A stretch of 64,000 bases of DNA from Acidobacteriota bacterium (GTDB lineage Bacteria; Acidobacteriota; Thermoanaerobaculia; Thermoanaerobaculales; Sulfomarinibacteraceae), in the NCBI GenBank assembly GCA_022340665.1, contig JAJDNM010000029.1:15627-79626 (forward strand), written 5' to 3'. Numbering within the stretch: position 1 is the stretch's first letter; each line of letters starts with the position of its first letter. A model generated the notes under the pieces. The model was given only the letters and a program-made list of their open reading frames with translations. It had not been told where the DNA came from and searched no databases. Positions 17,895 to 63,549 of the stretch are shown here, piece by piece. Position numbers and translations under genes: made by a program.

Positions 17895-17972
17895 GGACGG
17901 CGGAACCCGTATGGCCGTATAGCCGTTTCGCCTTGGGTGGGCGGGTGACGGAACCCGTTCTGCCGTTCAGCC
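17895..17972. repeat. two ~28-bp direct repeats (GACGG(C)GGAACCCGTnnnGCCGTnnAGCC) flanking a GGGTGGGCGGG motif
   Basis: Copies at 17895-17924 and 17945-17972. The GGGTGGGCGG motif recurs in other intergenic mosaics in this window. Confidence 0.7.
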
Positions 17973-17973
17973 C

Positions 17974-20900
17974 CTACAGCAATCTCTCGTTCGCGTCATC
18001 ACCGAGGGCTATGACGGATCGGAAAAGGGCTCTGACGATCTCGATATTGTTGGACAGGAGATCGAAGAAGTCTTCGGCTTCTATGATCAGCATTCGTGAT
18101 TCGGTGGTCGCAACTGCATCGCCCGACCGGGTGTGACCGCTGAGGATATCGAGAACACCGAAACGTCCGCTCGGCCCGATCACCACCCCGTGTTCCTCGT
18201 CGGCACCCAGCCGCACCTTCCCTTCGACCACACAGAAGAGGCTGTCGGCGGGCTCATCGCGGCGGAAGATTACCTCGTCCTTGTCATAGGTGTGCTCGCT
18301 GGCAATCGCCGCCAACCTGAGGACCTGCTCCGCGTTGCAGTGGGCAAAGAGATCGACCCCCTGTAGAAAGACCATCATCTCGATCTGTGCCATCTGGCCC
18401 ATATCGGTGTCTCCTCCCCTCGCGATCACTCCCCGGGTTCTCGGGCCGGCCTTGACCTTGTTTGTAACCCAGGCGGCAGTCTCCTTGACCATCTGGTCCT
18501 CCGTTTCCTCTGCCAGCGCCGCCACCTCCGGGTAGAGCTTTTCGATCTCCTCGTCCCACACGTTGTAGAGAGCCGCGAGGATGATGCCGATGGCGCTCGG
18601 GTCGCGCCGCGGGTCGATCTGGATCATCCGATGAAGTGCCTGTTCCGGAGATTGAACCTGAGTCCCGAATATCTGATGTGCACGCCTGAGCTTGTCCTCC
18701 AGCGGGGCATCATCGATCACCGCGAACAGATCGCGGCGCAATGAACCTGAAAGCGTGTTGTCGAGGTACTCGAGCGAGCGCGCCCGAAGCTTGTTGTTGC
18801 CCGTGAGGAGGCTCCGTTGGGCGGCCCGCACATCCTCCGGGTTCTCGACCAGCTCGAGTAGAGAGAAGATGTTGCCGACCGAGTCGACCAATCGTTGAGC
18901 GAGCAGCTGCTGCGGCAGCGTCGGCACGCGGCCATCGACCTTCCAAACGGCCAGCGGCCCGTCCAATCGCGCTTCATGAAGCGACGACACCGCCCATAGG
19001 TCGGCGAGATTCTGCAGATAGCGCGAGGCCTCTTTGCTGAGCTCACGGGTTATTTTCCGCCGACTGAACTTGAGGTCGGGATAGCGGGACCGCAGATAGC
19101 TCAATGCTTCGATAATCTTCGTGCGCAGCATCGAGTCGGAGGCGTCAAGGCTCTCCAGCAGGACATCCACCGCCTTTTGAGATCCGATCAGAGCGATCGT
19201 CTTGGGTACCGCCCGGCGAACCCAGATCTGCTCGTCGTCAGATCGCATGAAGAGCAGTAGCGGCTCGATAGCCACGACGCCCTGGGCCACCAGCGCCTCG
19301 CGGGCCTCGTGCTTGAGTCTCCGATTTCCCGTCAAGGAGATGAGGATGGTTGCGTAGAGGGGATTCGGTCCGCTACGCGCGACCCGCTGGCGAACCGCGT
19401 GAATCGCTTCCTGGATCACTTTCAGGTCACGATCGTAAAGAAGCAGAACCAGGATGTCACTCGCCGTAGGATCGTCGACCTGGCCGAGAGCGCCGGCCGC
19501 CTCGGCCCGGACGCAGGGATTGTCATCCGCGACCATTTCGGAAAGCACGTTTTCGGCTTTCTCCCGGGCCTCGCCCTCTCCTCCCCCGAGAAGGCCGGCA
19601 ACGGCAGACGCCCTTAGACGCGGGTTTTTCTCTTCGAGGTGCTTCAGCATCAGGCTGGCGGCATACTCTTTCCGGAGCTGGGCGAGGGTCCGCATGGCGC
19701 CGGTGCGGACCTCGGCATCGCTGTCGCCGAGGGCGCGCTCCACCAGATCGGCTGCATCCTCGCGGCCCGTTTCAGCCAGGATGTCGAGTGTCCTGCGGCG
19801 CACCTCCGCGCTGTCATGATGGAGCAGCACCGGCGGGACGAGTCGTCCCTCACCGCTCGACGACAGGAGATCGAGACTGTGGAGGACCTTGCGCGGATCC
19901 GAGCTTCCGAGTGCCTCGACCAGAGTCGTCACGGTTGTCACGTCACTGGAATCGATCGTCGCATCGGTCTGGATGACGCCGGATTTCAGGCCTTCTCGAA
20001 AGGCGGTCACGTACTCGCGCCGGGTGCGGATCGTCAGTGCCAGCCAGCCGATGGCGAGAAACAGAGTCACCACGCTCACCCAGGTGGCAGACAGAAAGGT
20101 CAGGATTACCAGGATCAGAATCGCCGCGGCGCCCTTGCTGAACCGCTGGATGAAGACATCGATGAACGCCTTCGCCTTGATCCGCAATTCCTCCGCGACC
20201 GGCATGAAGAGAAGCTCCCGGGTGGCCTGATCGACCGAGTGTCGGAGGCTGTTTTCGCCGAGGAATAGGATCCACACGAGCGGATAGACGATGAGCGTGG
20301 CCGGCGAGAAAACGATGGCCAGCACCACCGCCAGTTGAGCCAGAACCACCGTGCCGGGCAACACGCGCATTCCGACGCTCACCCCCAGGACCCGGTGGAT
20401 GCGGCCAGTGAAGATCAGCTGGAAGAGAAAGCCGACAAGACCCATCAGAATGAAGGCGTACGCGAAGACCGACGTCCGCTGGTCGAGGTTTTTGGTGTGC
20501 AGTTCGACATACCAGTTGAATTGCCAGCCGACGAGTTGGCCAATCATGACCGAGGCAGCCATCAGGAGGGCGATCATTGCCAGCAGCCTCGAACCTCTCA
20601 GGGTGCTGAGCCCGCCACGCGCCTCGTCATATCGGAGTTTGCGAATCGACCGTGGAGGCCTGTCAGGGTGTGCCCGGCGCCGCTCGATGAGGACCAGCAG
20701 GATGGGAAGGACGAGCAGCAGCGCCGCGGCGGCGAGCAGGATGTAGCGAGTGCCCGCGACGCGGGTCACCGCCGCAGCCAGCAGCCCGCCCAATGTGGCT
20801 CCGAGCAGACCGCCCGCACCGATGAAGGAGAACAGACGCCGAGCCTGCCTTGCGTCGAAGACCTGGTTCGCATACGTCCAGAACTGCGACACGGCGATCG

Positions 20901-21348
20901 CGAACGCCATCCCCAGCCACACGTAGTAGAGCGCCGCGACCCATCCTCGTCCGATGCTGAAGAGGTAAAAGAAAAGGACCAGCCCGATGACGTGCAGCAG
21001 GGTGCCGCCCAGGATCAGCATCGGCAGACGCACGCGCATGGCCGCGCGCGAATAGAGCACCAGGACCGGAAGGGAGACTGCGGCGACCGCGAGATAGACC
21101 CACGGGAGGTTCTCTGCACCGAGGGAATCAATGAAGGTCGCCTGCCGGACGGATTTGCTCGCGAAGTGAACCGTCGTCAGGATCAGGAATTCAAAAAAGA
21201 ACAGCCACGCCAACCCGCCCTCACCCCGCCGAATTCCGAAAATGCCGCCCCCGAAATCGCGGAGCCTGCCGCCGGAACGCATCGCGTTGCCGACCGAGAG
21301 TCTCTCGTGCGCAGCCGAGTCCGTCGTTCTTGGTCTCACTCTCGCCAA
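17974..21348 (-). CDS. multi-domain membrane protein: N-terminal TLC/NTT-like (ATP:ADP antiporter family) transporter, central HEAT (PBS-lyase type) repeats, C-terminal cyclic-nucleotide-binding domain
   Basis: N-terminus GLAWLFFFEFLILTTVHFASKSVRQATFIDSLGAENLPWVYLAVAA with ~12 TM helices resembles nucleotide transporters. HEAT repeats include AEVRRRTLDILAETG, DAEVRTGAMRTLAQL and NPCVRAEAAGALGQV. cNMP domain: FLQGVDLF...FGVLDIL...RSGDAVA. Likely start at internal ATG (MRSGG..., ~21282). Confidence 0.8.
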   Translation of the reverse strand: MARVRPRTTDSAAHERLSVGNAMRSGGRLRDFGGGIFGIRRGEGGLAWLFFFEFLILTTVHFASKSVRQATFIDSLGAENLPWVYLAVAAVSLPVLVLYSRAAMRVRLPMLILGGTLLHVIGLVLFFYLFSIGRGWVAALYYVWLGMAFAIAVSQFWTYANQVFDARQARRLFSFIGAGGLLGATLGGLLAAAVTRVAGTRYILLAAAALLLVLPILLVLIERRRAHPDRPPRSIRKLRYDEARGGLSTLRGSRLLAMIALLMAASVMIGQLVGWQFNWYVELHTKNLDQRTSVFAYAFILMGLVGFLFQLIFTGRIHRVLGVSVGMRVLPGTVVLAQLAVVLAIVFSPATLIVYPLVWILFLGENSLRHSVDQATRELLFMPVAEELRIKAKAFIDVFIQRFSKGAAAILILVILTFLSATWVSVVTLFLAIGWLALTIRTRREYVTAFREGLKSGVIQTDATIDSSDVTTVTTLVEALGSSDPRKVLHSLDLLSSSGEGRLVPPVLLHHDSAEVRRRTLDILAETGREDAADLVERALGDSDAEVRTGAMRTLAQLRKEYAASLMLKHLEEKNPRLRASAVAGLLGGGEGEAREKAENVLSEMVADDNPCVRAEAAGALGQVDDPTASDILVLLLYDRDLKVIQEAIHAVRQRVARSGPNPLYATILISLTGNRRLKHEAREALVAQGVVAIEPLLLFMRSDDEQIWVRRAVPKTIALIGSQKAVDVLLESLDASDSMLRTKIIEALSYLRSRYPDLKFSRRKITRELSKEASRYLQNLADLWAVSSLHEARLDGPLAVWKVDGRVPTLPQQLLAQRLVDSVGNIFSLLELVENPEDVRAAQRSLLTGNNKLRARSLEYLDNTLSGSLRRDLFAVIDDAPLEDKLRRAHQIFGTQVQSPEQALHRMIQIDPRRDPSAIGIILAALYNVWDEEIEKLYPEVAALAEETEDQMVKETAAWVTNKVKAGPRTRGVIARGGDTDMGQMAQIEMMVFLQGVDLFAHCNAEQVLRLAAIASEHTYDKDEVIFRRDEPADSLFCVVEGKVRLGADEEHGVVIGPSGRFGVLDILSGHTRSGDAVATTESRMLIIEAEDFFDLLSNNIEIVRALFRSVIALGDDANERLL

Positions 21349-23590: not shown

Positions 23591-23613
23591 TCGCCCGTTT
23601 CTTTCGATCAACC

Positions 23614-23643
23614 AGAACCCGGCTTCGGCCGGGTTCTTTTTTG
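23614..23643 (+). terminator. Rho-independent terminator after groEL
   Basis: agaacccggc-ttcg-gccgggttct stem-loop followed by TTTTTT. Confidence 0.85.
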
Positions 23644-23869
23644 AGAAGGCGTTTCGGAAAAACGGCGTTACGGGGAATCGCCAGTACCCGGAACAGGCAT
23701 AATGATGAGCTTGAGCGTCTTTGCGTCGGCACGTGAGAGGGAGAACCCATGGAACCGTCTGCCGAGTGGGCGGGCGGAGGAATAACGCAACTCCGATGGA
23801 CATTTACCGTACTGTCCGTGGGGCTGCCGGGAGCGATACGAATCGACCCGTGAACCAAAGGAAAACACG

Positions 23870-35172: not shown

Positions 35173-36963
35173 ATGATTCGCGCAGTTCGTGCATCCGTAA
35201 AGGCAGCCAACCTCCTCGCCCGTGGCGCCCTTGCCCTGACCGTTGGGTTACCGATCGGGGGTTGCGCTCACGGCGGTCGAAGTGACGACTCCTCGGTCGT
35301 CGCGCCCCTCTACGCCCCCGAGGCCCATTCGGACCTAGGCATGGTATCCACCGGGTCGATTGAAGCGACCCAAGCGGGCGTCACAATTCTCGAGTCCGGG
35401 GGCAACGCGATCGATGCCGCGGTGGCGGCGGCTCTCGCTCTCGGGGTCGCAGATCCGGGTGGATCCGGGCTTGGCGGAATGACCTATATCCTGATCTCGT
35501 TCGCCGACGGCCGGTCGATCGCAGTAGATGGCTCGGCCATCGTGCCCGTTGGAGCCGACCGCAAAGCGCTGGCAGAAATTCAGGCTTCCGAGGAACGATT
35601 CGGCGCCAGGGCAGTGGCAGTTCCAATGGCTCTCGCTGCCATGAGCCACGCTCTCGAGCGGCACGGCACCATGAGCTTTGCACGGGTGGCTGCGCCCGCA
35701 ATCAAGATTGCTGTGAATGGATATCGCCTCAGCCCCAATTCTATCTCGTGGGCCAACAGCTATCTCGACGACATCATGGCCTCTCGCTACCTCAGATTCG
35801 TCGCACTTGACGCCGGGGAACGAGTGGGCACACCGGGCGATCTGGTCTGCCGTCCCGATCTTGTCACCACCCTGAGAGTGCTTGCTGCAGAGGGCCCAGA
35901 CTCCTTCTATCGCGGCAGCATCGCACGGAGCATGCTGATTGATCTCTCGAGCCTCGGCGGATACCTCCGTCCGATCGATCTCGTGTCGACCAAGGCGGCA
36001 GAGCTGCAGCCGCTATCCTCGGAGTATCGCGGCGCGGAAGTCTTGTCCTACCCGTGGCCCGGAGGCGGCGGCGAGGTCGTGGCGATGCTCAACATCATTG
36101 AACAACTAGAATTCGATCTGCTACGCACGCCGTCGGTCGAACGCCTGCACGTAATGATCGAGGCCTCTCGGCTGGCCCGCGCCGATTTCCTGAGGTCCGC
36201 CTCCGGCCCAGCGCAACACGCTTCCAGCCTTGCCGGCCAGCTCTCCAAAGCCTACGCGAGGGAACGCGCCAGCCTGATCACTCCCGGCCGGGCACTCCCT
36301 GAGGATCTCGTTCAATCTTCCGGTTCCGCGGCCAGGATGGGCAACCACACCACCCACATCTCGGTCGCGGATCGCTGGGGTAACGCGGTCGCCATGACTC
36401 AGACCCTGTGCCGCCAGTACGGTGCGAAAGTCGCAACTCCAGGCCTCGGGTTCCCATACAACAGCTGCCTCGAGTTCTTCGATTTCGAGAATGAGGCCAG
36501 CCCCATCTATCTGCGCCCGCGGGCGCTCTACGCGTCCAACATGGCACCGACCATCGTTCGCCACGAGGGAACACTGCTGATTCTCGGCAGCGCCGGATCC
36601 GACCGTATCCCCGGTTCGGTCGTCGAGGTTATCAGCAACGTGTTCGACCGACAGATGGGAATCCGGGACGCCGTCACGGCTCCACGCGCACTGTGGAACA
36701 GTGCTCACGAACCGGACCGGATCTGTATTGAGATCGCGGACCCGATCTCCCATGCCGACGCCGACGAGCTCCAGAGCTTCGGCTTCGAACACATGTTCCG
36801 CCTCGATTACCTGGCCGGTCCCGTCAACGATGCCCCGTTTTTCGGCGGTGTCAACGCAGTACTCTACCAACCCGCGACCGGAAAATATTCTGGTGTCGGC
36901 GATCCCCGGCGCAACGGGTTCGCGCTCGGTCCGAGAGCGATCGTGCAGCGGGAGGGGCATTGA
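35173..36963 (+). CDS. gamma-glutamyltranspeptidase (GGT) 2, lipoprotein paralog
   Basis: NHTTHISVADRWGNAVAMTQTL and GLGFPYNS. Signal with lipobox PIGGC. Start at ATG 35173 (the ORF-track start 35092 overlaps GGT1). Confidence 0.9.
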   Translation: MIRAVRASVKAANLLARGALALTVGLPIGGCAHGGRSDDSSVVAPLYAPEAHSDLGMVSTGSIEATQAGVTILESGGNAIDAAVAAALALGVADPGGSGLGGMTYILISFADGRSIAVDGSAIVPVGADRKALAEIQASEERFGARAVAVPMALAAMSHALERHGTMSFARVAAPAIKIAVNGYRLSPNSISWANSYLDDIMASRYLRFVALDAGERVGTPGDLVCRPDLVTTLRVLAAEGPDSFYRGSIARSMLIDLSSLGGYLRPIDLVSTKAAELQPLSSEYRGAEVLSYPWPGGGGEVVAMLNIIEQLEFDLLRTPSVERLHVMIEASRLARADFLRSASGPAQHASSLAGQLSKAYARERASLITPGRALPEDLVQSSGSAARMGNHTTHISVADRWGNAVAMTQTLCRQYGAKVATPGLGFPYNSCLEFFDFENEASPIYLRPRALYASNMAPTIVRHEGTLLILGSAGSDRIPGSVVEVISNVFDRQMGIRDAVTAPRALWNSAHEPDRICIEIADPISHADADELQSFGFEHMFRLDYLAGPVNDAPFFGGVNAVLYQPATGKYSGVGDPRRNGFALGPRAIVQREGH

Positions 36964-38141
36964 TGACGCTTCGTGTGTACCTCGAAGACCCGTATCTTAC
37001 CGAGCTCGAGGCTGAGGTCGTGAAAGCCGATGCCCAGGATGGTCGTCCCTACACCGTGCTGTCGGAAACGATCTTCTACCCGGAGGGCGGCGGGCAACCG
37101 GCGGACCGCGGGCACCTCGGAAGTGCCAAGGTCCTCGACGTCCAGACCTGTGACGGTGAAATCCGCCACTTCCTCGACAAACCGGTCGAACCCGGACCGG
37201 TGCGGATCGAAATCGAATGGCGGCGCCGGTGGGACCATATGCAACAGCACACGGCTCAGCACGTGCTGACCGCTGTCGCCCTTCGAGATTTCGGCTGGCG
37301 CACCACCGCGTTTCACCTCGGAGCCGAAACAAGCGACATCGAACTTGATGTACCGGACCTCACACGGCAGAATCTCAGAGACCTGGAAGAAAAAGTCGCC
37401 GAGGAGATCAGGGCTGCCCGTCGCGTGACATACGGCAGTGCCGAGGCGGCAGATTTCGAGCGTCTTGGAGTGAGATCGCGGCTTCTACCGGAGGGACTCT
37501 CGGGAAAGGTTCGTCTGGTGGATATCGAGGGTCTCGACCTCAACACCTGCGGTGGCACCCACTGCCGATCGACCGCCGAGATCGGCTCGCTCAGCCTGCT
37601 CGGGACCGAACCGATGCGAGGCGGCACGCGGGTTTTCTTCGTTGCCGGCGACCGTGTGCGTCGACGCTTGACCGCGCACGAGAATCGCAACCTGCGCCTG
37701 AGGACACTGCTCGACACGGGAGACGAAGAGCTGCCCGATGTCGTTCAGCTCCGGCTCGAACGCGAGAAGGCCCTGGCTCGCACAAATCGCCGACTCTCCG
37801 CCGCGCTCGCGGATTCCACTGCCCAAAGCCTGTGTTTGAAATCGTCGGCAACGGTTGATGCCCACTGGTCGGAACGCGACATGGCCTTTCTGCAATCGGT
37901 GGCACGCGCCGTCGCCGAAAAGGCACCAGAGAAACGTGTTCTTCTCACCTCGGAGACCGAAGACGGCGTGTTGTTCGTCGTCGCAACAGGCGCAGAGTCC
38001 GGGCTGCAGGCCGAAGGCGCTGGGCCGGCAGTCGCAGAGGCCCTCGGCGGCCACGGCGGTGGCCGAGGTTCCATCTTCCAGGGCAAGGCAAAATCGCTCG
38101 CGCAACGGGAACGGGCTCTGAAGATCCTCCGCGAAGCGTAG
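36960..38141 (+). CDS. AlaX-L type alanyl-tRNA editing protein (Ser-tRNA(Ala) deacylase; tRNA_SAD + DHHA1)
   Basis: HTAQHVLTAV (HxxxH) and CGGTHC zinc motifs, with a C-terminal DHHA1-like GGHGGGRGSIFQG. ATGA overlap with GGT2. Confidence 0.85.
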   Translation: MMTLRVYLEDPYLTELEAEVVKADAQDGRPYTVLSETIFYPEGGGQPADRGHLGSAKVLDVQTCDGEIRHFLDKPVEPGPVRIEIEWRRRWDHMQQHTAQHVLTAVALRDFGWRTTAFHLGAETSDIELDVPDLTRQNLRDLEEKVAEEIRAARRVTYGSAEAADFERLGVRSRLLPEGLSGKVRLVDIEGLDLNTCGGTHCRSTAEIGSLSLLGTEPMRGGTRVFFVAGDRVRRRLTAHENRNLRLRTLLDTGDEELPDVVQLRLEREKALARTNRRLSAALADSTAQSLCLKSSATVDAHWSERDMAFLQSVARAVAEKAPEKRVLLTSETEDGVLFVVATGAESGLQAEGAGPAVAEALGGHGGGRGSIFQGKAKSLAQRERALKILREA

Positions 38142-38160
38142 ACACCCGAAAAACCACGGA

Positions 38161-38427
38161 GGCACAGAGGACACAGAGGAAGCACAGAGTTTCTGTCGCT
38201 TCTTAACGCAAAGACGCGAAGGCACAAAGACGCAAAGTCCCCCGCCCACCCACCACCATGAAGAGGGAGAGAATCAGAACCGACGTGCTCTCTTTGCGTC
38301 TCTGCGACTTTGGGTGGGCGGGCGGAGGGGTGGCTCTGCGTTTTCTCGGGTGGGCGGGTGGAAAATTCGAAATTCGAAATTCGAATTGGGCGGGTGGGTG
38401 GACCCTGAGTCTCTGTGCCTCTGTGGT
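38161..38427. repeat. composite mosaic inverted-repeat element (CACAGAG, CAAAGACG, CCCGCCCACCC, GAAATTC heptamer blocks in mirrored order)
   Basis: The left arm carries (cacagag)x3, (caaagacg)x3 and cccgcccacccacc. The right arm carries their reverse complements plus (gaaattc)x3. It fills the gap between convergent genes. Confidence 0.9.
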
Positions 38428-39818
38428 TATTCGGCACCAACCGGTGCGACGAGCCGCTTGAAATCCTCGCGATCGCGAAGGCCGTCGAGGTCGTGGTCGG
38501 TCGCCATCAGCTCGAATTGATTGAATCCCGTCTCGAACGCTCGCGCGAGTGCCTCCATCGCCGCCTCGTCATGTCCGAGAAGAGCTCGCATGCAGGCGAG
38601 GTTGTACCAGACGACCGGGTTGTCATCGCGGATCATCACCGCCAGCTCGTACGACGTGGCCGCATGTGCGTACCGACCCTCGCCCGCAGTATCCCGAGGC
38701 AGGTAGAACGAGACTCCGCCGTAGAGCGCGTTGAGACACCTTTGAGCTGCGAGCCCTCTGGCGTCCTTTTGCTCTCCCTCGTGCTGCAGCTGCCTTATCT
38801 GAAACCGTTGGGCGAGCTGGGCAACGCGCTGTGGAATTTCCGAGCTGCGAAGGGCATGCAGGCCGATACTGACCCGCTCGTCGCAGCGGCGCTCGAAGTT
38901 TCGGATTTTCTTAATGGTCTTGGCCTGATCCCGATAGGTCGCTTCGGCCTCGATCTTCCGTGCGCGGCTGCCAGCATTCGTCGACACCCCAAGACCCCCA
39001 TAGGTTCGATCGATCTCGCGATACCTCCGCGCAGCGTCATAATCGCGACCTTCGTCAACCAACAGATTCGCGGCCTCCATGTCTTTGGCTAACAGCGTGC
39101 CCACCAGCTCTGCATCGACGCTTCGCTCACCCCGTTGCATGGCAACAAGCTCGAACCACTCGATTGCCTCCCGTGCCAACTCGGGTGGCATCCAGGAATG
39201 TGAGCCTTCGAAGATCGCCAGGCGATGCGGGTTGCCCTGGGCCTCGAGAAACTCGTTGAGGAGGTGCATCTCCCTGTAGTTGAAGTCGAGCGAGCCGGCG
39301 GTAGCGAAGATCGGCACGTCGTCACCCTCGAGGATCTCTGGAAAATGCCGCCCGCCGCACGCCAGAATCCCCGCCAACCCTTGCGTCGCCCTCGAAAGCG
39401 AATATGCGACTGCGGCCCCACCCGAGAAGCCGGCGGCGTAGATTCGGCTACTATCCGTCGGCAGGCGCAAGTGGATCTCCGGCCACAGCGCCTCGAGGGC
39501 GATGGTATTGGGCTCCATCGGTCCGTCGGATCGGGTGTTGTCGGAGCTGACGATCATCCAGCCGTAGGCCTCGGCAGCATCCCTGAACAGCTCGGCAGCG
39601 AGCAGGGATCGCCCGCGTGGGTCGAAGACCAGTAGCACCGGCCACAAACGATCACTGGAATATGTCGAAGGGACGTAAAGGGTGTACGTCTGGGTCGGAT
39701 TGGACGCGCATTCGATGCCTTCGACCATCACACCGACCGGAACCGTGAGTGGCGGTATTTCGGCGTCGGCCAACCCGGCAACGCACGCTATCAGCAGGCC
39801 AAGAGATGCCAAGCGCAT
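38427..39818 (-). CDS. secreted alpha/beta-hydrolase (esterase/peptidase, GFSGGA nucleophile elbow) with C-terminal TPR-like helical domain
   Basis: Signal peptide MRLASLGLLIACVAGLADA from ATG 39818. GFSGGAAVAYSL serine motif. C-terminal half helical and TPR-like (YNLACMRALLGHDEAAMEALARAFETG). Confidence 0.75.
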   Translation of the reverse strand: MRLASLGLLIACVAGLADAEIPPLTVPVGVMVEGIECASNPTQTYTLYVPSTYSSDRLWPVLLVFDPRGRSLLAAELFRDAAEAYGWMIVSSDNTRSDGPMEPNTIALEALWPEIHLRLPTDSSRIYAAGFSGGAAVAYSLSRATQGLAGILACGGRHFPEILEGDDVPIFATAGSLDFNYREMHLLNEFLEAQGNPHRLAIFEGSHSWMPPELAREAIEWFELVAMQRGERSVDAELVGTLLAKDMEAANLLVDEGRDYDAARRYREIDRTYGGLGVSTNAGSRARKIEAEATYRDQAKTIKKIRNFERRCDERVSIGLHALRSSEIPQRVAQLAQRFQIRQLQHEGEQKDARGLAAQRCLNALYGGVSFYLPRDTAGEGRYAHAATSYELAVMIRDDNPVVWYNLACMRALLGHDEAAMEALARAFETGFNQFELMATDHDLDGLRDREDFKRLVAPVGAE

Positions 39819-39820
39819 GA

Positions 39821-42670
39821 TTGACTTACGTTGAGACACCTTTTTGGGTTCTACATCGGCTCGACTGGTTCCACCCTCCACCCACCCACGGCCAAACAGC
39901 ATTACGGGTGAGGTCATCCGGCAAAATCTACGCGCGTCGCTCCATCTCTACAGCACCACATCGCTGGAAAGCCGATCGGCCGTATCGCCGTCGAGCCGTA
40001 AAGCCGCTCCGACTTCAATACAATGGGCGCGTGGAGATCATTACAACCCACCTCTCGGCCGATTTCGATGCGTTCGCCGCAGCCGTGTGCTCGGTTCGAC
40101 TGTATCCTGGCGCCAAGGTGCTTTTTCCGGGTTCTCAGGAGGCGGCAGTGCGGCGTTTCCTCGCTGATACGGACCTCAGTTACCCTGAGTTCAAGCTGCG
40201 AGCTGCACGGACCGCAGGTATCGAGCATGTAGTGGTGGTCGATACCCGCAGCCCGTCGCGCCTCGGTGAGGTCCACGATCTTATCCAGCGAAACCGATGT
40301 CGGATCACCGTGATCGACCATCACACGGAGGATGACGACAACGATCTCGACGCGGATCAGGTTTTCGAACGCCCGGTCGGCGCAACCTGTACGATCGTCG
40401 CCGAACTCTTTCGCGAGCGCGGCATCGAACCGACCGAGGACGAAGCGACTCTCCTTCTCATGGGTATCTACGAGGACACCGGTGGTCTTTCCTACCGCGA
40501 GACCACGGCCGATGATCTCCGCATCAGCGCATGGCTTCTCGAACGGGGCGCTTCGCTCGGATGGGTGAGACGGTGGGTTCTCAAGGCTCTCCAACCCGAG
40601 CAATTGGAGCTGCTCAACCGGATGGTCGAGGCCACCGAGCAAGTCATGGTGGCGGGGACCCCCGTCGCGCTGTCGATGATCGAGGTGGATGAATACCACG
40701 AGGAGGCAGCATTCGTCGTACACCGATGGGTCGAGATCTTCGAGATCGCTGTCGGTGCAGTCATGCTCGTACGACCGCCGAACATCAATCTGATCCTGCG
40801 GTCCCGTCTCCCGGACCTTCACATCGGGAAGGTGGCTCAGCGGTTCGGGGGCGGTGGCCATCCGACTGCAGCGTCGGCGCGAGTCACCGGTATGATGCCC
40901 GTTGAACTCAGGGAAACGTTGCTCGAAACACTCGCAGTCGAAATGCCGCCGCCGGCGACCGCCATCGACATCGCCGTCCGCACGATTTTTTCAATCGATG
41001 ACACAAACAACGTCGAGGAGACCAAGAACCGGATCAACCAGCTTCGAGTCAATGCCCTTCCCGTCCGTGACAGCGGAACCGGTGAGTTGATCGGCCTCGT
41101 AACACGACAAACCCTGGACTACGCCCTCAGCCACGAGATGGGCAACCGACCCGTGCGCTCGGTGATGCAGCCTGAGCTACCGGTCGTATCGGCAGCCATC
41201 CCGCTCGATGACCTCCGGGACATCTTCCTTGAACGTTCCTACCGTTTCGTGGTCGTCGAAGATGCTGGTCGACCCGCCGGCATCGTCACCCGGATGGAGC
41301 TCTTCCGCCGTCTTTTCGAGCAGCAATACGATACCGGTTCCACGCTTGACCACCGAATGGCGGGGACCCGCCCCGTCAGCCAGCCCATCACCCGCCTTCT
41401 GCGAGATTTCTCGCCCCCTTGGGTCCAGCGTCTGGTGTCCGCGGCCCGGGAGGTCGCCGACCGCCTCGGCGTCTCGGTTTACCTGGTCGGCGGCATGGTC
41501 CGTGACATGCTGCTCCAACGAGCGAACGAGGACATCGACCTGGTCGTCGAGGGCGACGGCATCGCGTTCGCCGAAGCACTGGCGGAGATGCTGGGCGGCC
41601 GCCACCATCCGCATGCGCCGTTTTTGACCGCTGTCGTCACACTCCCCGACGGCCTCCGGGTCGACGTAGCTTCGGCACGCACCGAGTTCTACCGCACGCC
41701 CGCAGCGCTCCCTGAGGTCGAGACTTCCTTGATTCGCCAGGATCTCTACCGTCGTGATTTCACCATCAACGCCCTTGCGGTTGCGCTCTCGGGTGAACGT
41801 TACGGCGATCTCGTCGATTTCTTCGGCGGCCGCAAGGATATCCAACGTCGGGAGATCAGAGTGCTCCACTCACTCTCATTCATCGACGATCCGACCCGGG
41901 CGCTCCGTGCCGTGCGATACGCGCGCCGGCTCGGTTTCGACATCGCCAGTGACACCCGCAACCTGATTGCCACGGCCCTCGAGGAGGGCGTTTTCGAACG
42001 CCTGTCGGGTCAGCGTCTTCGGCGCGAACTCGAACACCTGTTGGCTGAGCCACACCCGACCCCGGCGCTCGAACTGGTCGCCGATATCGGGCTCATGCCG
42101 GCCATCTGCCCAGGCCTGGAGTGGTCCGAGGACATTCAAAGCTATCTCATGGAGTTGGAAGGCCAGCTCGCCTGGCATCAGCTCGAACAGCTCGGCTCAC
42201 CTCCCGAACAATGGATGCTGTTCCTCGGTGGATTGGCGCTTTCGTCTGGCCCCGACGCCGTGATCCGCCTGGTCGAGAGACTCCAGCTTGGCGGTCCGGT
42301 GAAAGACCGTTTTCTGGCGCTACCGGAGGCGGTGGAAGCGATCAAGGCGGCCGCGGAACCTGACCTGTCCACATCCCAGCGGGCAAATGCGATCGAGCAA
42401 CACTCGACGGAGTCACTATTGCTCGCGATGTCAGAGCTGCAGATGGAATCGCGACGCAGGCTGGCCAACGCATCGGTCTCGAACGCGCGGACCCGGATGC
42501 CAATCACCGGGCAGCAGCTGATCGACGGCGGAATGTCACCCGGCCCGCACATCGGACGAGCCCTCAAGCTGACCCGCGATGCACTCATCGACGACATGAT
42601 CGAAACCGAAGACGCTCTCTCCTGGGCACTTGAAACCGCCCGCTCGCTGGAACGGGAGACGATCCCGTGA
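39821..42670 (+). CDS. cca: multi-domain tRNA nucleotidyltransferase (CCA-adding/poly(A) polymerase head domain) fused to N-terminal DHH-DHHA1 phosphoesterase and CBS domains
   Basis: DHH motifs (ITVIDHHTED, GGGGHPTAASA), a CBS pair, then PolyA_pol head (VYLVGGMVRDMLL...DIDLVV...RDFTINALA). The ORF-track ATG 39821 is 3 bp from the divergent gene start; the real start is probably downstream (for example GTG ~40031). Confidence 0.8.
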   Translation: MTYVETPFWVLHRLDWFHPPPTHGQTALRVRSSGKIYARRSISTAPHRWKADRPYRRRAVKPLRLQYNGRVEIITTHLSADFDAFAAAVCSVRLYPGAKVLFPGSQEAAVRRFLADTDLSYPEFKLRAARTAGIEHVVVVDTRSPSRLGEVHDLIQRNRCRITVIDHHTEDDDNDLDADQVFERPVGATCTIVAELFRERGIEPTEDEATLLLMGIYEDTGGLSYRETTADDLRISAWLLERGASLGWVRRWVLKALQPEQLELLNRMVEATEQVMVAGTPVALSMIEVDEYHEEAAFVVHRWVEIFEIAVGAVMLVRPPNINLILRSRLPDLHIGKVAQRFGGGGHPTAASARVTGMMPVELRETLLETLAVEMPPPATAIDIAVRTIFSIDDTNNVEETKNRINQLRVNALPVRDSGTGELIGLVTRQTLDYALSHEMGNRPVRSVMQPELPVVSAAIPLDDLRDIFLERSYRFVVVEDAGRPAGIVTRMELFRRLFEQQYDTGSTLDHRMAGTRPVSQPITRLLRDFSPPWVQRLVSAAREVADRLGVSVYLVGGMVRDMLLQRANEDIDLVVEGDGIAFAEALAEMLGGRHHPHAPFLTAVVTLPDGLRVDVASARTEFYRTPAALPEVETSLIRQDLYRRDFTINALAVALSGERYGDLVDFFGGRKDIQRREIRVLHSLSFIDDPTRALRAVRYARRLGFDIASDTRNLIATALEEGVFERLSGQRLRRELEHLLAEPHPTPALELVADIGLMPAICPGLEWSEDIQSYLMELEGQLAWHQLEQLGSPPEQWMLFLGGLALSSGPDAVIRLVERLQLGGPVKDRFLALPEAVEAIKAAAEPDLSTSQRANAIEQHSTESLLLAMSELQMESRRRLANASVSNARTRMPITGQQLIDGGMSPGPHIGRALKLTRDALIDDMIETEDALSWALETARSLERETIP

Positions 42671-43874: not shown

Positions 43875-43889
43875 TCGTTCCCAAGTAAC

Positions 43890-43924
43890 TGGATGTTGGA
43901 TCTTGGATGTTGGATGTTGGATCC
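43890..43924. repeat. 7-bp tandem repeat (TGGATGT/TGGATCT) x5
   Basis: Directly read. Intergenic between convergent rsmD and the YdbT-like gene. Confidence 0.9.
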
Positions 43925-44016
43925 GACCAGCGTCTGAACCACACCGCCAAGGTCAGCACGTGAATCGAAAACCCAATGTCAAACATCGAATATCGAAGAT
44001 CGAACGAACGGATGAA

Positions 44017-45353: not shown

Positions 45354-45396
45354 GACGTGAGTTTATACCCGCTGTTGACCGGTTGTATTCCACTCA

Positions 45397-45490
45397 GAAT
45401 TTGAGAGTTGAGAATCGAGAGTTGAGAGTTGGTTCAAAAGACGCCGATCTGCGGTTTCAGGGTGGGTGGGCGGAACTCTCAACTCTTCAC
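45397..45490. repeat. mosaic hairpin element: (GAGAGTT)n ... AAAGACGCC ... GGGTGGGTGGGCGG ... inverted (AACTCTC)
   Basis: gagagttgagaatcgagagttgagagttgg ... ggaactctcaactcttc inverted arms around a GGGTGGGCGG core. Confidence 0.85.
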
Positions 45491-45525
45491 TTACGAGCGT
45501 CAGTTGGTCGATTGACAAATCAGGA

Positions 45526-45792
45526 ATGAATCCTGATATTATGACCGTCTGGGGGTTTTTGATGGCTCTGCTTCGGCCGAAAAACAAACGACGCCGCACC
45601 AAATTTCGCTCCTACACAGTCATCCGGTGCCCGTTCAACGGCCACCAGGTGTCGTTCTGCCGAGGCCTGTGCGAGCCTGTCAATGGTTACGGTCACTGCG
45701 GCCGCATCGCCGCCCATGCGATGATCGGCCGCCATCAGGCGGCCATCGCCAGCTACAAGGCACGGCCGCTCAAGGACAGGCCGAACTACTGA
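45526..45792 (+). CDS. hypothetical small Cys/His-containing protein
   Basis: ORF with moderate codon bias (CPFNGHQVSFCRGLCEPVNGYGHCGRIAAH). The 5' end overlaps the repeat element, so the call is weak. Confidence 0.3.
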   Translation: MNPDIMTVWGFLMALLRPKNKRRRTKFRSYTVIRCPFNGHQVSFCRGLCEPVNGYGHCGRIAAHAMIGRHQAAIASYKARPLKDRPNY

Positions 45793-45796
45793 TCGT

Positions 45797-45910
45797 CGCT
45801 CGATGCTGGATGCTCGATGCCGGATCCTGGATGTTGGATGCAAGAGAATTATCGGTCCACCGCTTCAGCTGGCGGCGAAGCGGATCTAGCATCCATGATC
45901 TAGCATCCAG
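45797..45910. repeat. inverted blocks of CTGGATG/CTCGATG heptamer repeats around a small GC hairpin (ccgcttc...gaagcgg)
   Basis: Left block gctcgatgctggatgctcgatgccggatcctggatgttggatg. Right block ctagcatccatgatctagcatccag, the reverse complement of the same family. Confidence 0.85.
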
Positions 45911-45932
45911 AATCGGGTGGGGCAACCGGAGC

Positions 45933-47735: not shown

Positions 47736-47978
47736 GGGGGGATCCTCTCCGACCCGCAACAGCGGGCGCGCTGTTGTAACACCTGGGGTCTTCAGGGTCA
47801 ATGGGCGCAGAATGAATTCGGATTTCGGAATTCGGAATCTGAATTTTCACACGTAGGGCAAATCTGCCGAAACAGTACTTAAAAATATACTCAGTCTCAG
47901 AAATGGTTGACTTCTTTCTGGTAACAGGTATCTTTTCGATTGGCGCGATTTCTCGAGGCAATTGGCGGGGAACCGGTG

Positions 47979-49423: not shown

Positions 49424-49945
49424 ATGTCCAAGACCCAAGAAAACCTGATGGCCGCATTTGCCGGGGAAAGCCAGGCCCGCAACATGTACACCTACTTCGC
49501 CAAGGTGGCGCGCAAAGAGGGCTACCATTACATCGCGAAGATCTTCGAGGAAACCGCTATCAACGAGATGCGGCACGCCAAGGACGAGTTCGTGCTCGCC
49601 GGCGGCCTGGGCGATACGGTCGCCAACCTCAAGAAAGCCGTCGAGGGAGAGGACTACGAGACCACAACGATGTACCAGGATTTTGCAGCCACTGCCGAGG
49701 AGGAAGGCAACAAACAGGCGGCGATTCTCTTCAGGATGATCGCCCGAGTCGAGGCCGAACACCGCGACCGATACAAGAAGATCCTCGAGATGGTCGAGAA
49801 CGGCACCGTCTACAAGCGGGACGAACCCATCCGCTGGAAGTGCGCGGTCTGCGGCTACATTCACGAGGGCACCGAGCCGCCCGCAAAATGCCCGTGCTGC
49901 CAACACCCGCGCGAGTACTTCGAGCCGGAGAACATGGAGTTCTGA
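49424..49945 (+). CDS. rubrerythrin (diiron ferritin-like domain + C-terminal rubredoxin-like CxxC-x12-CxxC)
   Basis: MSKTQENLMAAFAGESQARNMYTYFA...EMRHA...EAEH and C-terminal KCAVCGYIHEG...KCPCCQHP. Confidence 0.9.
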   Translation: MSKTQENLMAAFAGESQARNMYTYFAKVARKEGYHYIAKIFEETAINEMRHAKDEFVLAGGLGDTVANLKKAVEGEDYETTTMYQDFAATAEEEGNKQAAILFRMIARVEAEHRDRYKKILEMVENGTVYKRDEPIRWKCAVCGYIHEGTEPPAKCPCCQHPREYFEPENMEF

Positions 49946-50020
49946 ATTTTAAATTCTCAATGTTGAATTTTGAATGACGAGGTGACCCCTTTGCAGCTGT
50001 TGAGTCCGTGGGGGTGGATG

Positions 50021-50056
50021 GCAATTCGAAATTCGAAATTCGAAATGCGCGAAATC
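50021..50056. repeat. GAAATTC heptamer tandem element (AATTCGAAATTCGAAATTCGAAATGCGCGAAATC)
   Basis: Near-identical copy at 63515-63549. Related runs at 28338-28363, 28411-28437, 38362-38388, 47810-47848, 53200-53226, 53261-53280, 57088-57144 and 59769-59811. Confidence 0.9.
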
Positions 50057-51663: not shown

Positions 51664-51850
51664 CCGATTCGCGATGCTCGATGCTCGAAACTGGATGCTG
51701 GTTCCTGGATGCTGGATGCTGGATGCTGGATGCTGGATGCTGGATGCTGGATGCTGGATGCACCGAGCGCATAAGCCATCTCGCTGAATTGTCAAGTGGT
51801 GGGAGGGTGGATCGAGTATCCAGCATCTAGTATCGAGCATCTGGACGGGT
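51664..51850. repeat. long imperfect palindrome built from CTGGATG heptamers (8+ tandem GCTGGAT copies at 51690-51754; inverted copies at 51806-51836)
   Basis: Directly read. Occupies the whole gap between the convergent phosphodiesterase and REC-LpxC genes. Confidence 0.92.
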
Positions 51851-51858
51851 GGTTGGGC

Positions 51859-53154
51859 TCAGCTGTTGGCGGCAAGAATCTGGCGCTGGATCTCGATGTT
51901 GTCGCGGTGGCCGGTGAGGTGGGCGGTCACCTTGCCGCGCACCGGGTAGCCGAGCATATAGAGATCGCCGACGATGTCGAGGATCTTGTGGCGCACGAAC
52001 TCGTCGGAGAAACGGAGCTCAGTATTGATGACGTTGTCCTCACCGACGAGGATAAAGTTGTCGAGCCGGCCGCCGGTGCCGAGGCCGAGCTCGTTGATCA
52101 TCTTGAGGTCGCGCATGAATCCGAACGTCCGGGCCGGGGCGATCTCCTCACGAAACGCTTCACATTCGGTCATCTCGAAGTCGTAGAACTGGTCGCCCAC
52201 CGGCGGCGGGTAGGCGAGTTGGTAGGAAACCGAGAAGCCGTCCGATGGCTCGATCACCAGCGATTTCTCACCCTCACCTACCTCGTACCGGCGATCGATG
52301 ACGAGTTCCTTGACCGGCGCATCCTGTTCGACGATCCCAACCGCCTCGAGCCTTTCGAGGAAGCTGAGAGCCGAGCCGTCAAGCACCGGGATCTCTCCGT
52401 GAACCTTGACCAGCATGTTGGTGATACCGCAGGCGTGCAGGGCTGACAGCAGGTGTTCGACGGTGCGGATGCTCTCGCCTTTGGCCGTCAGGGTCGTCGC
52501 ATAATCGGTTTCGGCAACCGAGTTCACATGAGCGGGCATGGTGACGCCGCTCGGCAACGTGATGAAGTGGATGCCGGTGTCGGGAGGAAGGGGCTGGATC
52601 ACCATGCCGGTTCGGCCGCCGGAGTGGAGGCCGAGGCCGTATATCACGCTGGCATCACGAATCGTTTTCTGGCGGCGGTCGGTGGTCTCGAGAATCGGCA
52701 GCTCCGGAGGCGGCTCGAACTTCATGATCGGTTCGATGCGTGCCCGGCTCTCCTCGAGAACCCCGGCACCGGCATCCTCGTCCTTCGCACGCTTCGCTTC
52801 GAGCGCATCCTTGACGGCTCTGAGCGTCCGGTCGTACGAGAGGGGCTTCTCGAGGTAGTCGTGGGCACCCATCTTGATCGCCTTGACCGCGGTCTCCGAC
52901 GTCCCGTGGCCGGACATCATGACGACCATCGCGTTCGGGTCGACATCGCGCAGCGCCTGGAGGGTCTCGAGGCCATCCCAGTCGGGTAGCCAAATGTCGA
53001 GGAATACAACCTCCGGACGCTGTTCGCGAAATAGATGGAGGGCCTCCTCGCCGCTGGTCGTCGTGATCGTGCGGTAGCCCTCGTCGCCGAGAATCTGCGA
53101 CAGGGTCGTCAGAATCCCGGTTTCGTCGTCAACGATCAGAATGAGTTCGTTCAT
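51859..53154 (-). CDS. lpxC: response-regulator receiver domain fused to UDP-3-O-acyl-N-acetylglucosamine deacetylase (LpxC)
   Basis: N-terminal REC (ILIVDDE...VVFLDIWLPDWDG...MMSGHG...YLEKP) followed by a full LpxC (GLGLHSGGRT, TVEHLLSALHACGI, FVRHKILDIVGDLYMLG, HLTGHRDN). Confidence 0.88.
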   Translation of the reverse strand: MNELILIVDDETGILTTLSQILGDEGYRTITTTSGEEALHLFREQRPEVVFLDIWLPDWDGLETLQALRDVDPNAMVVMMSGHGTSETAVKAIKMGAHDYLEKPLSYDRTLRAVKDALEAKRAKDEDAGAGVLEESRARIEPIMKFEPPPELPILETTDRRQKTIRDASVIYGLGLHSGGRTGMVIQPLPPDTGIHFITLPSGVTMPAHVNSVAETDYATTLTAKGESIRTVEHLLSALHACGITNMLVKVHGEIPVLDGSALSFLERLEAVGIVEQDAPVKELVIDRRYEVGEGEKSLVIEPSDGFSVSYQLAYPPPVGDQFYDFEMTECEAFREEIAPARTFGFMRDLKMINELGLGTGGRLDNFILVGEDNVINTELRFSDEFVRHKILDIVGDLYMLGYPVRGKVTAHLTGHRDNIEIQRQILAANS

Positions 53155-53307
53155 GGCGGTTCAAGTGTGATGGTTCGAAGTTTCAGGGTCAACCCAGCGC
53201 AATTGAACTTCGGATTTCGGATTTCCCGCCCCACCCCCCGGGAATTTGGGGTCAGCAAGGACAAAATTCGAAATGCGAGGGTCGCCGACATCCCCAGTTC
53301 CTCATTT

Positions 53308-56984: not shown

Positions 56985-57144
56985 AAATGCAAAGACGCAA
57001 AAAGGCAAATACTCAAAATATTGTCTTTCTTTGCGCCTTAGCGCCTTTGCGACTTTGCGTTGTTTTCCTGGCTGGGTGGGCGGCATTCTTAATTCCTAAT
57101 TCCTAATTCCTAATTCCTAATTTCTAATTCCGAATTCCGAATTC
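56985..57144. repeat. mosaic intergenic element: CAAAGACG hairpin, GGGTGGGCGG motif, then (TAATTCC)x6-(GAATTCC)x2 tandem heptamers
   Basis: gcaaagacgcaaaaaggcaaa...tttgcgccttagcgcctttgcgactttgcg inverted arms, followed by ctgggtgggcgg and the heptamer array. Abuts the stop of the YitJ-like gene. Confidence 0.9.
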
Positions 57145-59749: not shown

Positions 59750-59768
59750 TCAGGGAGTATAGCGACAC

Positions 59769-59990
59769 GGATTCGGGATTTCGGATTTCGGAATTCTGAG
59801 TTCGGAATGCCACCCGCCCAAGCCTTGAAAAACCGCAGATCACGCAGATCGACGTTGATGTCAAGACAACCGGCGAAGAAACGTGGGTGACCCTAGCGCC
59901 AGCCCTATTCACCCTCTCCCCTCCGAAAGACGCGGAGGGCGCGGACCTACGTGACTTTCTGAGGGTGGGTGGGCGGGGGGAGGGGGCGGG
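59769..59990. repeat. repeat-rich divergent intergenic region (GGATTTCGGAATTC heptamers, CCACCCGCCC, GAGGGTGGGTGGGCGGGGGGAGGGGGCGGG)
   Basis: Same motif families as elsewhere in the window, lying between the HAD and TauE genes. Confidence 0.85.
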
Positions 59991-60187
59991 ATGCATAGTG
60001 CCGGCGGCGTTTCCATCGGCAGCGCCGCCCGCCGGCGCGCCGACGGCGCGTAGTGGAGGAGGGCCGACGGATCGAAGAGGGCTCGTCCTCGGAGAGCCGG
60101 TGGACCGAGGACACCTGGCCGCGATCGCAGATCGCGGCCGGCGGGCTCATGCACGGAGCATGTCACAATCGGGGCGTGACACCGACG

Positions 60188-63514: not shown

Positions 63515-63549
63515 CAATTCCGAAATTCGAAATTCGAAATGCGAGAAAG
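63515..63549. repeat. GAAATTC heptamer tandem element copy (AATTCCGAAATTCGAAATTCGAAATGCGAGAAAG)
   Basis: Near-identical to 50021-50056. Confidence 0.9.

Follow-up and report, generated by a model that had tools for sequence, protein, structure and literature searches.

A Nested Palindromic Spacer of Short Tandem Repeats Between Convergent Genes of an Acidobacteriota Bacterium: A Candidate Bidirectional Terminator or 3'-End-Protecting Hairpin

Introduction

Bidirectional intrinsic terminators between convergent genes are built from an A-tract, a 5' arm that contains A, a 3' arm that contains U and a T-tract. Heptamer tandem repeats of the short tandemly repeated repetitive (STRR) kind were reportedly found in cyanobacteria by Mazel in 1990. 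The TAACTGA heptamer repeats of Beggiatoaceae are intergenic and variable in copy number, and the function of heptamer tandem repeats is described as unknown or presumed to be post-transcriptional (PMC4679880). In Escherichia coli, the repetitive extragenic palindromic (REP) element REP325 has been reported to be a partly Rho-dependent terminator and also an mRNA stabiliser, and where a REP separates two convergent genes, both tend to be more highly expressed (bioRxiv 10.64898/2026.03.23.713779). The element described here occupies positions 38142–38426 of a 64-kb window of DNA from an uncultured Acidobacteriota bacterium (assembly GCA_022340665.1, contig JAJDNM010000029.1), a spacer of 285 bp that constitutes the entire gap separating an AlaX-like Ser-tRNA(Ala) deacylase gene from a convergent hydrolase/TPR-like gene. 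The window is the whole stretch analysed, to which the copy counts, the module census and the domain scans of open reading frames (ORFs; about 46, scanned with Pfam) refer, and it was compared with related loci from other assemblies and metagenomes, designated by L-numbers. With belief and doubt evenly balanced, the element is best explained as a compound bidirectional terminator or 3'-end-protecting hairpin that evolves by slippage while its arms are kept complementary. The structural and evolutionary part of this explanation is held with high confidence, the structure being observed and the evolution observed in part, and the function in termination or 3'-end protection is put forward tentatively, with doubt slightly ahead.

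Architecture and Folding of the Element

The focal element was found to be a nested inverted repeat, with a 5' half of T-poor tandem 7–9-mers (core CRCARAK) and a C-box and a 3' half of their reverse complements and (GGGY)n G-boxes; T makes up 9% of the left arm, and A makes up 12% of the right arm. Folding as RNA gave −133.2 kcal/mol for the + strand (z = −6.6) and −117.9 kcal/mol for the − strand (z = −5.4), with 0 of 200 shuffles as stable in either case. These values bear out the long imperfect hairpin proposed in an earlier reading of the sequence (the original prediction), for which RNA folding had been named as a check. The focal spacer was the most structured of the 22 spacers in the window, 4 of which presented z values below −3, compared with 0 of 22 size-matched coding controls.

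The outer left arm, which includes the A-tract (CCGAAAAACCACGGAGGCACAGAG, 38146–38169, + strand), pairs with the outer right arm (CTCTGTGCCTCTGTGGTTATTCGG, 38411–38434, +) over 24 nt with 92% complementarity. Array A (38155–38189, +) comprises four CACRGAG units at a spacing of 8–11 nt, namely CACAGAG at 38163, 38172 and 38183 and the variant CACGGAG at 38155. Array B (38207–38237, +; period 8 and 4 copies in Tandem Repeats Finder (TRF)) consists of the four octamers CGCAAAGA, CGCGAAGG, CACAAAGA and CGCAAAG, with units beginning at 38207, 38215 (CGCGAAG), 38223 (CACAAAG) and 38231, and its inverted partners lie at 38292–38306 and 38334–38342. The C-box, CCCCCGCCCACCCACCACC (38239–38257, +), is the complement of the G-box and pairs perfectly over 12 nt with 38311–38322. 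The palindrome centre (38258–38290, not assigned to a strand) retains CAGAACCGACGTGC at 38272–38286, the leftover of an element with three hairpins, about 125 nt long, which relatives carry in complete form.

On the right-hand side, array B' (TCTTTGCG TCTCTGCG ACTTTG, 38291–38310, +) is the reverse complement of the array B units, and CTTTGCG/CTCTGCG units are found at 38292, 38300 and 38334. G-box 1 (GGGTGGGCGGGCGGAGGGG, 38312–38330, +) has four G3 tracts and fits the canonical G-quadruplex motif, of which the window holds only three, this one included. The lone CTCTGCG unit followed by TTTTCTC (38334–38347, +) forms, with a small stem at 38322–38339, a terminator-like site, and the TTTTCY piece lies 5' of G-boxes at other loci too. 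G-box 2 (GGGTGGGCGGGTGG, 38348–38361, +) and G-box 3 (GGGCGGGTGGGTGG, 38388–38401, +), both located by direct-repeat and motif search, flank the (AAATTCG) x3.3 array (38362–38387, repeat at 38363–38385, +; 100% matches in TRF), which is polymorphic in copy number and pairs with itself through TTCGAA cores, the only self-complementary unit among the arrays. The outer right arm, with CTCTGTG at 38411 and 38419, holds the final two codons of the hydrolase gene and its stop at 38427–38429 (TTA, which is TAA on the − strand).

With '>' for a CRCARAK unit, '<' for its complement, 'c' for a C-box and 'g' for a G-box, the order of modules in the focal element is >>>> >>>> c (centre) << g < g (AAATTCG)n g <<. 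The nesting is imperfect, and alternative pairings exist because the pairing of the C-box with G-box 1 encloses array B' in its loop. An A-rich tract precedes the stem and a T-rich tract follows it (GAAAAA on the 5' side and TTATT on the 3' side in the window). The motifs listed in the original prediction were present at the positions given there, except that the exact string CAAAGACG occurs twice and not three times.

Slippage and Co-Evolution of the Arms

Near-identical contigs were found in metagenomes from ENA and JGI (L001 and L002), together with a 96% identical contig (L003) from an NCBI metagenome-assembled genome (MAG). The window and L001 are 99.82% identical, with 7 substitutions in 7,746 nt, and the sole indel between them is one AAATTCG unit of the focal array, of which L001 has 4. 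The focal arrays must slip fast, since the only indel in 7.7 kb is one such unit. An ORF running across the array would be put out of frame by this 7-bp difference, and the array is therefore not coding; a 67-aa ORF at 38258–38461 was rejected as a coding sequence on these grounds. Contigs L002 (end 2391) and L003 (end 2691) stop inside or just before the focal element, which suggests that such arrays break short-read assemblies.

The outer stems pair CACAGAG with CTCTGTG in the window, L090, L100 and L103, and CGCAAAG with CTTTGCG in L118 and L089, where the arms agree unit by unit. In the covariation alignment, which comprised six outer stems, 26 pairs were obtained with 91% of cells paired, compared with 31–59% when the partners were slid; six of the pairs were changed on both sides, and the covariation score was matched by 1 of 500 shuffles. 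The motifs CACAGAG, CGCAGAG, CGCAAAG, CACAAAG, CACGAAG, CACAGAT and CGCAGAT form a chain of single substitutions, a series that fits what drift and homogenisation in place might leave behind.

Conservation at the Orthologous Site

Gene order around the element is kept in relatives with AlaX proteins 61–71% identical, in which the orthologous spacers range from 79 to 703 bp. In the 5' part of most of these spacers, the stop codon is followed by an A-tract, (CACAGAGG)3 or (CGCAAAGR)3, a C-box, (CGCAGAGR)3–4 and the centre; in the 3' part, the centre is followed by (CTCTGCG)n, a T-rich piece, a G-box, (CTCTGTG)n and the opposite stop codon. This layout is present in L090, L095, L100, L103, L104, L109, L115 and L118/L089; the modules also follow this order in L107, and AlaX is 61–70% identical in these relatives. 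The outer left arm is kept as CCGAAWAACCACAGAGG in L090, L100, L103 and L115, and the outer right arm in L090, L095, L100, L103, L104, L107 and L109; array A also lies 3' of the AlaX stop in L090, L098, L099, L100, L103 and L115, and in relatives the C-box also comes after array A. The outer stem touches or abuts the hydrolase stop codon in most orthologous spacers. Of the 17 orthologous spacers folded, the window counted, 11 presented z values between −3.3 and −20, whereas the four shortest (79–141 nt; L093, L099, L102 and L108) had values from near 0 to −1.8. More distant AlaX relatives in genome contigs were at most 53% identical, without synteny among the matches listed.

The original prediction had placed the 270-bp element in a family of BIME/REP-like modular elements; taken whole, the element is no dispersed repeat unit, being specific to this locus and found at the orthologous position in relatives. 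As far as sequence comparison can tell, the focal spacer is a resident, conserved and locus-specific structure assembled from family-wide modules, and not a copy of a dispersed element.

Other arrays are retained at their sites in a similar way. TGGATGC-type arrays lie 3' of a 76-aa gene in the window (45798), L088, L089 and L090, and GCCGT-type arrays with a C-box lie 5' of a DHH-CBS-PolyA_pol gene in the window (39872–40008) and in L090 (11700–11840). The 12-mer TTCAATACAATG (40014–40025 in the window) is also kept just 5' of this gene, which is CCA-adding-like, in 17 related loci. The ORF start at 39821 is probably too early, because this 12-mer is conserved, and the C-box at 39872–39890 and the GCCGT-type array at 39968–40008 are, from the sequence, probably intergenic and situated in a divergent spacer.

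Persistence of this kind bears on the idea that the spacers are a functionless by-product of mutation, filled by slippage duplications and template-switch inverted copies. Such a neutral origin agrees with the slippage seen on the very short timescale between the window and L001, with the presence of arrays in all spacer types, divergent ones included, and with the loss of arrays or of one arm in some relatives (L099 and L107). The periods of the arrays point the same way, since in 344 kb of clade sequence period 8 is the most frequent among tandem arrays (45 arrays, compared with 17 of period 7 and 14 of period 9); furthermore, according to Mrazek 2007 as quoted in PMC4679880, heptamer-type repeats are the commonest long simple sequence repeats in many bacteria and are ascribed to slippage. 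Nevertheless, motif and module order persist at orthologous sites despite 30–40% divergence of the flanking proteins, as do the TGGATGC arrays of the 76-aa gene and the GCCGT arrays of the DHH-CBS-PolyA_pol gene, and arrays of three or four units are not expected to last that long. The arms are still complementary, with changes on both sides, and the polarity and the A/T flanks are non-random, all of which makes a purely neutral origin quite unlikely.

The Module Family in the Window

Intergenic DNA makes up 7.0% of the window, and the modules are concentrated in it. GGGYGGGYGG was counted 16 times where 1.4 occurrences were expected, and adjacent CRCARAK units 5 times where 0.03 were expected. 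Of the 31 G-box-type motifs, 28 lie in intergenic DNA (p ~2e-29), as do all 5 occurrences of CACAGAG and 14 of the 17 arrays of period 7–9, for which 1.2 would be expected (p ~4e-14). A genome-wide lack of intergenic enrichment had been named in the original prediction as grounds for abandoning its proposal, and the window census points strongly the other way. The additional sites that it had pointed out (17932–17942, 45397–45490, 53200–53280, 56985–57144 and 59769–59990) do carry modules, with G-boxes at every one, GAAATTC-type arrays at 53209, 57130 and 59768 and GCAAAG-type arms at 56985–57059, but CACAGAG is absent from them and occurs nowhere in the window outside the focal element. Further module sites were found at 23706–23780, 39872–40008, 43889–44004, 45798–45925, 47814–47845, 49943–50050, 51673–51858 and 63516–63544. 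Almost all spacers between 38 and 64 kb hold arrays, boxes or both, and the same applies to 17772–17973, 23706–23780 and 39872–40008. The complete focal element occurs once in the window, where only short modules are repeated. Wherever both orientations cluster, in the window and in relatives, '>' and 'c' are located 5' and '<' and 'g' 3', and the order is never reversed.

The longest arrays of the window are (GATGCTG) x12.7 at 51673–51761 and (GACGGCTT) x7.8 at 17772–17833, with degenerate inverted partners on their 3' sides at 51811–51842 and 17907–17960, respectively. A different repeat family, which starts with gttcaccggacgtgccgtc and continues into a long hairpin, was seen in several spacers of two relatives (L088 15590–15690; L089 13010–13100, 17790–17920 and 20270–20380) and not in the window. 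Clades could not be told apart by crude counts of these boxes and arrays per locus.

A composite with constant internal orientation, TTTTCY-[G-box]-(AAATYCG)n, was found by motif scan to be dispersed over at least five loci of the window, at 38341–38387, 50005–50046 and 57064–57144 on the + strand and at 53209–53245 and 59768–59825 on the − strand, as well as in L088 (19876–19925, −). It provides the best support for the view that certain modules are spread or selected as units. The composite also fits an origin of the family from non-autonomous mobile elements, similar to miniature inverted-repeat transposable elements (MITEs) or REPINs; the mosaic would then consist of nested small insertions that have the tandem arrays and boxes as their ends and are moved by a transposase whose gene lies elsewhere in the genome. 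The 24-nt outer arms formally resemble terminal inverted repeats, and L102, L106 and L108 have an ACGGCTT-type array and a C-box in place of the module at the AlaX stop. L090 has two direct copies of a composite of about 250 nt (17639–18002 and 18747–19112), containing a GATGC-type array, a CGCAGAT-armed hairpin, a G-box and a GCCGT-type array, on either side of a 247-aa gene that is not present at the corresponding position of the window. On the other hand, no target-site duplication was found at the element ends (38146 and 38434) and no transposase or RAYT Pfam domain among the ORFs scanned, which also tells against the known insertion sequence or MITE that the original prediction had named as a competing explanation. 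The entire element is not repeated in the window, the architecture occupies the same site in genomes with 61–70% AlaX identity, unlike a recent insertion, and the motifs form the one-step mutational series that drift in place predicts. Mobility of this type is consequently regarded as unlikely.

The G-boxes are the most sharply intergenic motif of the census, and this would fit a role of arrays and G-boxes at the level of DNA, either as multivalent binding sites for a nucleoid-associated or regulatory protein or as G-quadruplexes or cruciforms acting on topology or replication. G-box 1 and the box at 59963 fit the canonical quadruplex motif, quadruplex-forming heptamer repeats rich in G are concentrated close to the ends of genes in Xanthomonas and Nostoc (PMC4692102), modules occur in promoter-side spacers too, and the mismatch types within the stems show no strand preference. 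However, four G3 tracts are present only at 38312–38330 and 59963–59980, the remaining boxes having three, and the boxes are paired with C-boxes within the palindromes. No candidate binding protein was found, and the strand bias of intergenic G-boxes (8 + versus 3 −) was not significant; a strong bias counted by eye (about 14:3) was dropped under this strict definition. Moreover, the 5'-A/3'-T polarity is readily meaningful for RNA and not for a symmetric DNA cruciform, and a DNA-level role is considered improbable.

Comparison with Described Systems

The family resembles REPs and bacterial interspersed mosaic elements (BIMEs) in an extragenic position, often between convergent genes or at gene 3' ends but in divergent spacers too, the ability to form hairpins, a mosaic of few motif types with alternating orientation and a probable role like that of REP325. 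It differs in that the units are non-palindromic tandem 7–9-mers, compared with palindromic REP units of 20–40 nt, and the palindromy arises from inverted arrays; there are no fixed linkers and the units are of other kinds, whereas REP mosaics use defined linker motifs. No domain of a REP-associated tyrosine transposase (RAYT; Y1/HUH), with which REPs are associated, was detected by Pfam among the window ORFs, and the focal element lies at one deeply conserved orthologous site, in contrast to the strain-variable locations of REPs. The BIME/REP-like modular family of the original prediction is real as a family of modular, hairpin-forming and almost exclusively intergenic motifs that recur in varying combinations in the window and in relatives, but its members are neither REPs nor BIMEs; what they have in common with these is a probable function and a mosaic layout.

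MITEs and the pneumococcal BOX elements have in common with the focal element inverted ends, a modular make-up and a variable number of internal modules. Terminal inverted repeats in the sense used for MITEs are found here, with the arms overlapping the stop codon of the neighbouring gene. In contrast to MITEs, no direct repeat flanks 38146 and 38434, and the element is single-copy in the window with orthologous presence in most relatives; the units are also much smaller than those of MITEs and BOX elements.

With STRR and long simple sequence repeat (LSSR) loci the family shares short head-to-tail units of about 7 nt, an overwhelmingly intergenic location (14 of 17 arrays) and a copy number that slips between close strains. 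Here, however, period 8 is dominant, inverted array pairs form long polar stems, C-boxes and G-boxes are present, and the motif families are others. The GGGNATC-type repeats of Xanthomonas and Nostoc (PMC4692102) are likewise G-rich, periodic, strongly non-coding and close to stop codons, but the G-boxes of this family are period-4 (GGGY)n sequences, usually with three G3 tracts, and paired with C-boxes in palindromes.

That the original prediction recognised no known element family agrees with the searches. No Rfam family reached its gathering threshold in the window or at the 9 related loci scanned, and searching the focal region by E-value yielded only noise; plasmid and phage collections gave no match, and literature searches by motif string gave no relevant paper, only unrelated human or aptamer sequences.

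Possible Role at Transcript Ends

The resemblance to a bidirectional intrinsic terminator lies in the succession of A-tract, stem, loop, stem and T-tract between convergent genes, with A in the 5' arm and U in the 3' arm. Family-wide, the 12 nt 3' of '<' arrays contain 32% T and the 12 nt 5' of '>' arrays 33% A, compared with a background of about 19% each for A and T (62% GC). Examples of T-rich flanks are CTCTGCG-TTTTTTTCC in L095 and CCTTTGCG-TTTTGTTT in L118, and the element in the window is flanked as CCGAAAAA-stem...stem-TTATTCGG, also written CCGAAAAA...GTGGTTATT. A terminator pattern scan found one canonical-type site within the element, at 38322–38349 (+).

Given the palindromic layout, the modules would appear in the same order in both convergent transcripts. 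In each of them, the unstructured A/C/G arm would be transcribed first and the U/G/C arm would then zip up a long stem, the base of which reaches the stop codon of the opposite gene. The resulting RNA structure could act as an intrinsic-type terminator, as a barrier to 3'-to-5' exonucleases, or as both, for the two mRNAs, roles demonstrated for some REP elements of E. coli. As the comparisons show in part, replication slippage lengthens, shortens and homogenises the arrays, while selection or templated correction from arm to arm upholds the complementarity of the arms; the motif can therefore drift from CACAGAG through CGCAGAG to CGCAAAG with the hairpin persisting.

Several observations weigh against this explanation. 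Termination and stabilisation are purely what we infer. The element is a stem-loop of about 270 nt with nested sub-hairpins, as opposed to the 20–40 nt of bidirectional intrinsic terminators, its outer arms are 240 nt apart, far beyond canonical intrinsic terminators, and the T-tracts are short or broken (TTATT on the + strand). The genome also uses canonical terminators, as judged from an ordinary short intrinsic terminator, gaacccggcttcggccgggttctttttt (about 23603–23631, +), located 3' of a GroEL-type chaperonin gene. The hairpin is dispensable, as the short spacers of L093, L099, L102 and L108 are barely structured, and in L107 the left arm is mostly gone while the right-hand arrays are kept. 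Modules are also found in divergent, promoter-side spacers (45354–45534, 47802–47939 and 59750–60052), where a terminator role is not obvious. The covariation is based on 6 sequences that represent essentially two lineages, and independent events are few because the arrays homogenise and only two lineages are involved. Finally, G-U wobbles and A-C mismatches are nearly equal (5 versus 7), which does not separate constraint on RNA from constraint on DNA.

Two other candidate roles were rejected. The C-box as a sense-strand Rho-loading site after stop codons did not fit, as the first box 3' of gene ends in the window was as often a C-box as a G-box (6 ends each). A sponge for CsrA-type proteins through GGA motifs suited just some of the arrays (TGGATGC and GGAATTA) and not CGCAAAG or GAAATTC.

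In relatives, the ~125-nt three-hairpin element (GGCAGAACCGACGTGCC...GGCACGTCGGCCGGTGAGAAG...CTTCTCACCGGCGACAGGCGAT...ATCGCCTGTCGTTCTGCC) is located in the middle of the palindrome, at 9902–10026 in L090 and also in L095, L103, L107 and L109. RNAalifold gave 52 pairs for it, 4 of them changed on both sides, and it has no Rfam match; it could, on this model, be a structured RNA or a small insert. With its compensatory changes and the strong, conserved secondary structure of the spacer, it brings into view an independent small-RNA gene within the spacer. A pattern scan, however, detected no promoter-like site inside or beside the element, no Rfam family was matched, and the conserved core is largely deleted in the window, so that a small-RNA gene is highly improbable.

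Flanking Genes

The AlaX-like gene (36963–38141, +; stop codon 38139–38141) encodes a Pfam tRNA_SAD domain, and its homologues are called AlaX by JGI. The hydrolase/TPR-like gene (called at 38427–39917, −) has a weak Abhydrolase_2 match and is syntenic in L001, L004, L089 and L090; its real start is probably further downstream, as the proteins of relatives have 462–463 aa. No tRNA genes were found in the 64-kb window, and the window ORFs that could be named are all housekeeping genes. Two other genes were noted for their domains: that at 51859–53154 (−) encodes a response-regulator receiver domain fused to LpxC (UDP-3-O-acyl-GlcNAc deacetylase), an unusual combination, and that at 17974–21348 (−) a protein of 1124 aa in which HEAT repeats and a cyclic-nucleotide-binding domain accompany an MFS/TLC transporter-like region.

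Distribution and Significance

In 1.66 Mb of unrelated loci, tandem arrays are mostly of periods 6, 7 and 9, compared with the period-8 peak of the clade. Hairpins with CRCRRAK-octamer arms of the same polarity were found in GTDB MAG loci labelled as Acidobacteriota, in Vicinamibacterales (L030 15326–15385), Bryobacteraceae (L039 11177–11310), Terriglobia (L046 2814–3310) and Acidobacteriaceae (L057 5778–5802), and a hairpin with CACAGAT-type arms was found in a Gemmatimonas MAG (L059 17852–17928). In L046, the right arm lies inside three tandem 121-bp copies. These occurrences hint that the class of repeat-armed hairpins may be widespread in Acidobacteriota and their neighbours. It is possible, although doubtful, that they belong to an undescribed phylum-scale class of 3'-end elements, possibly restricted to Acidobacteriota and neighbours, in which long hairpins that terminate or stabilise transcripts are rebuilt again and again from 7–9-nt arrays prone to slippage, always with A on the 5' and U on the 3' side. 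(GGGY)n boxes would interrupt these hairpins, and a dedicated partner would be involved. Such a partner may be an RNA- or DNA-binding protein, or templated correction between the arms, that holds motif and polarity over family-level divergence.

The arrays are likely break points of assemblies and possible markers for strain typing. Should the hairpins indeed terminate or shield transcripts, they would reveal the way in which gene ends are marked in a little-studied and mostly uncultured lineage, and operon and terminator prediction in MAGs of this lineage would be improved. The family would then represent a REP-like solution reached from different building blocks, and a natural case in which the shape of a regulatory structure persists although slippage keeps replacing the underlying sequence.

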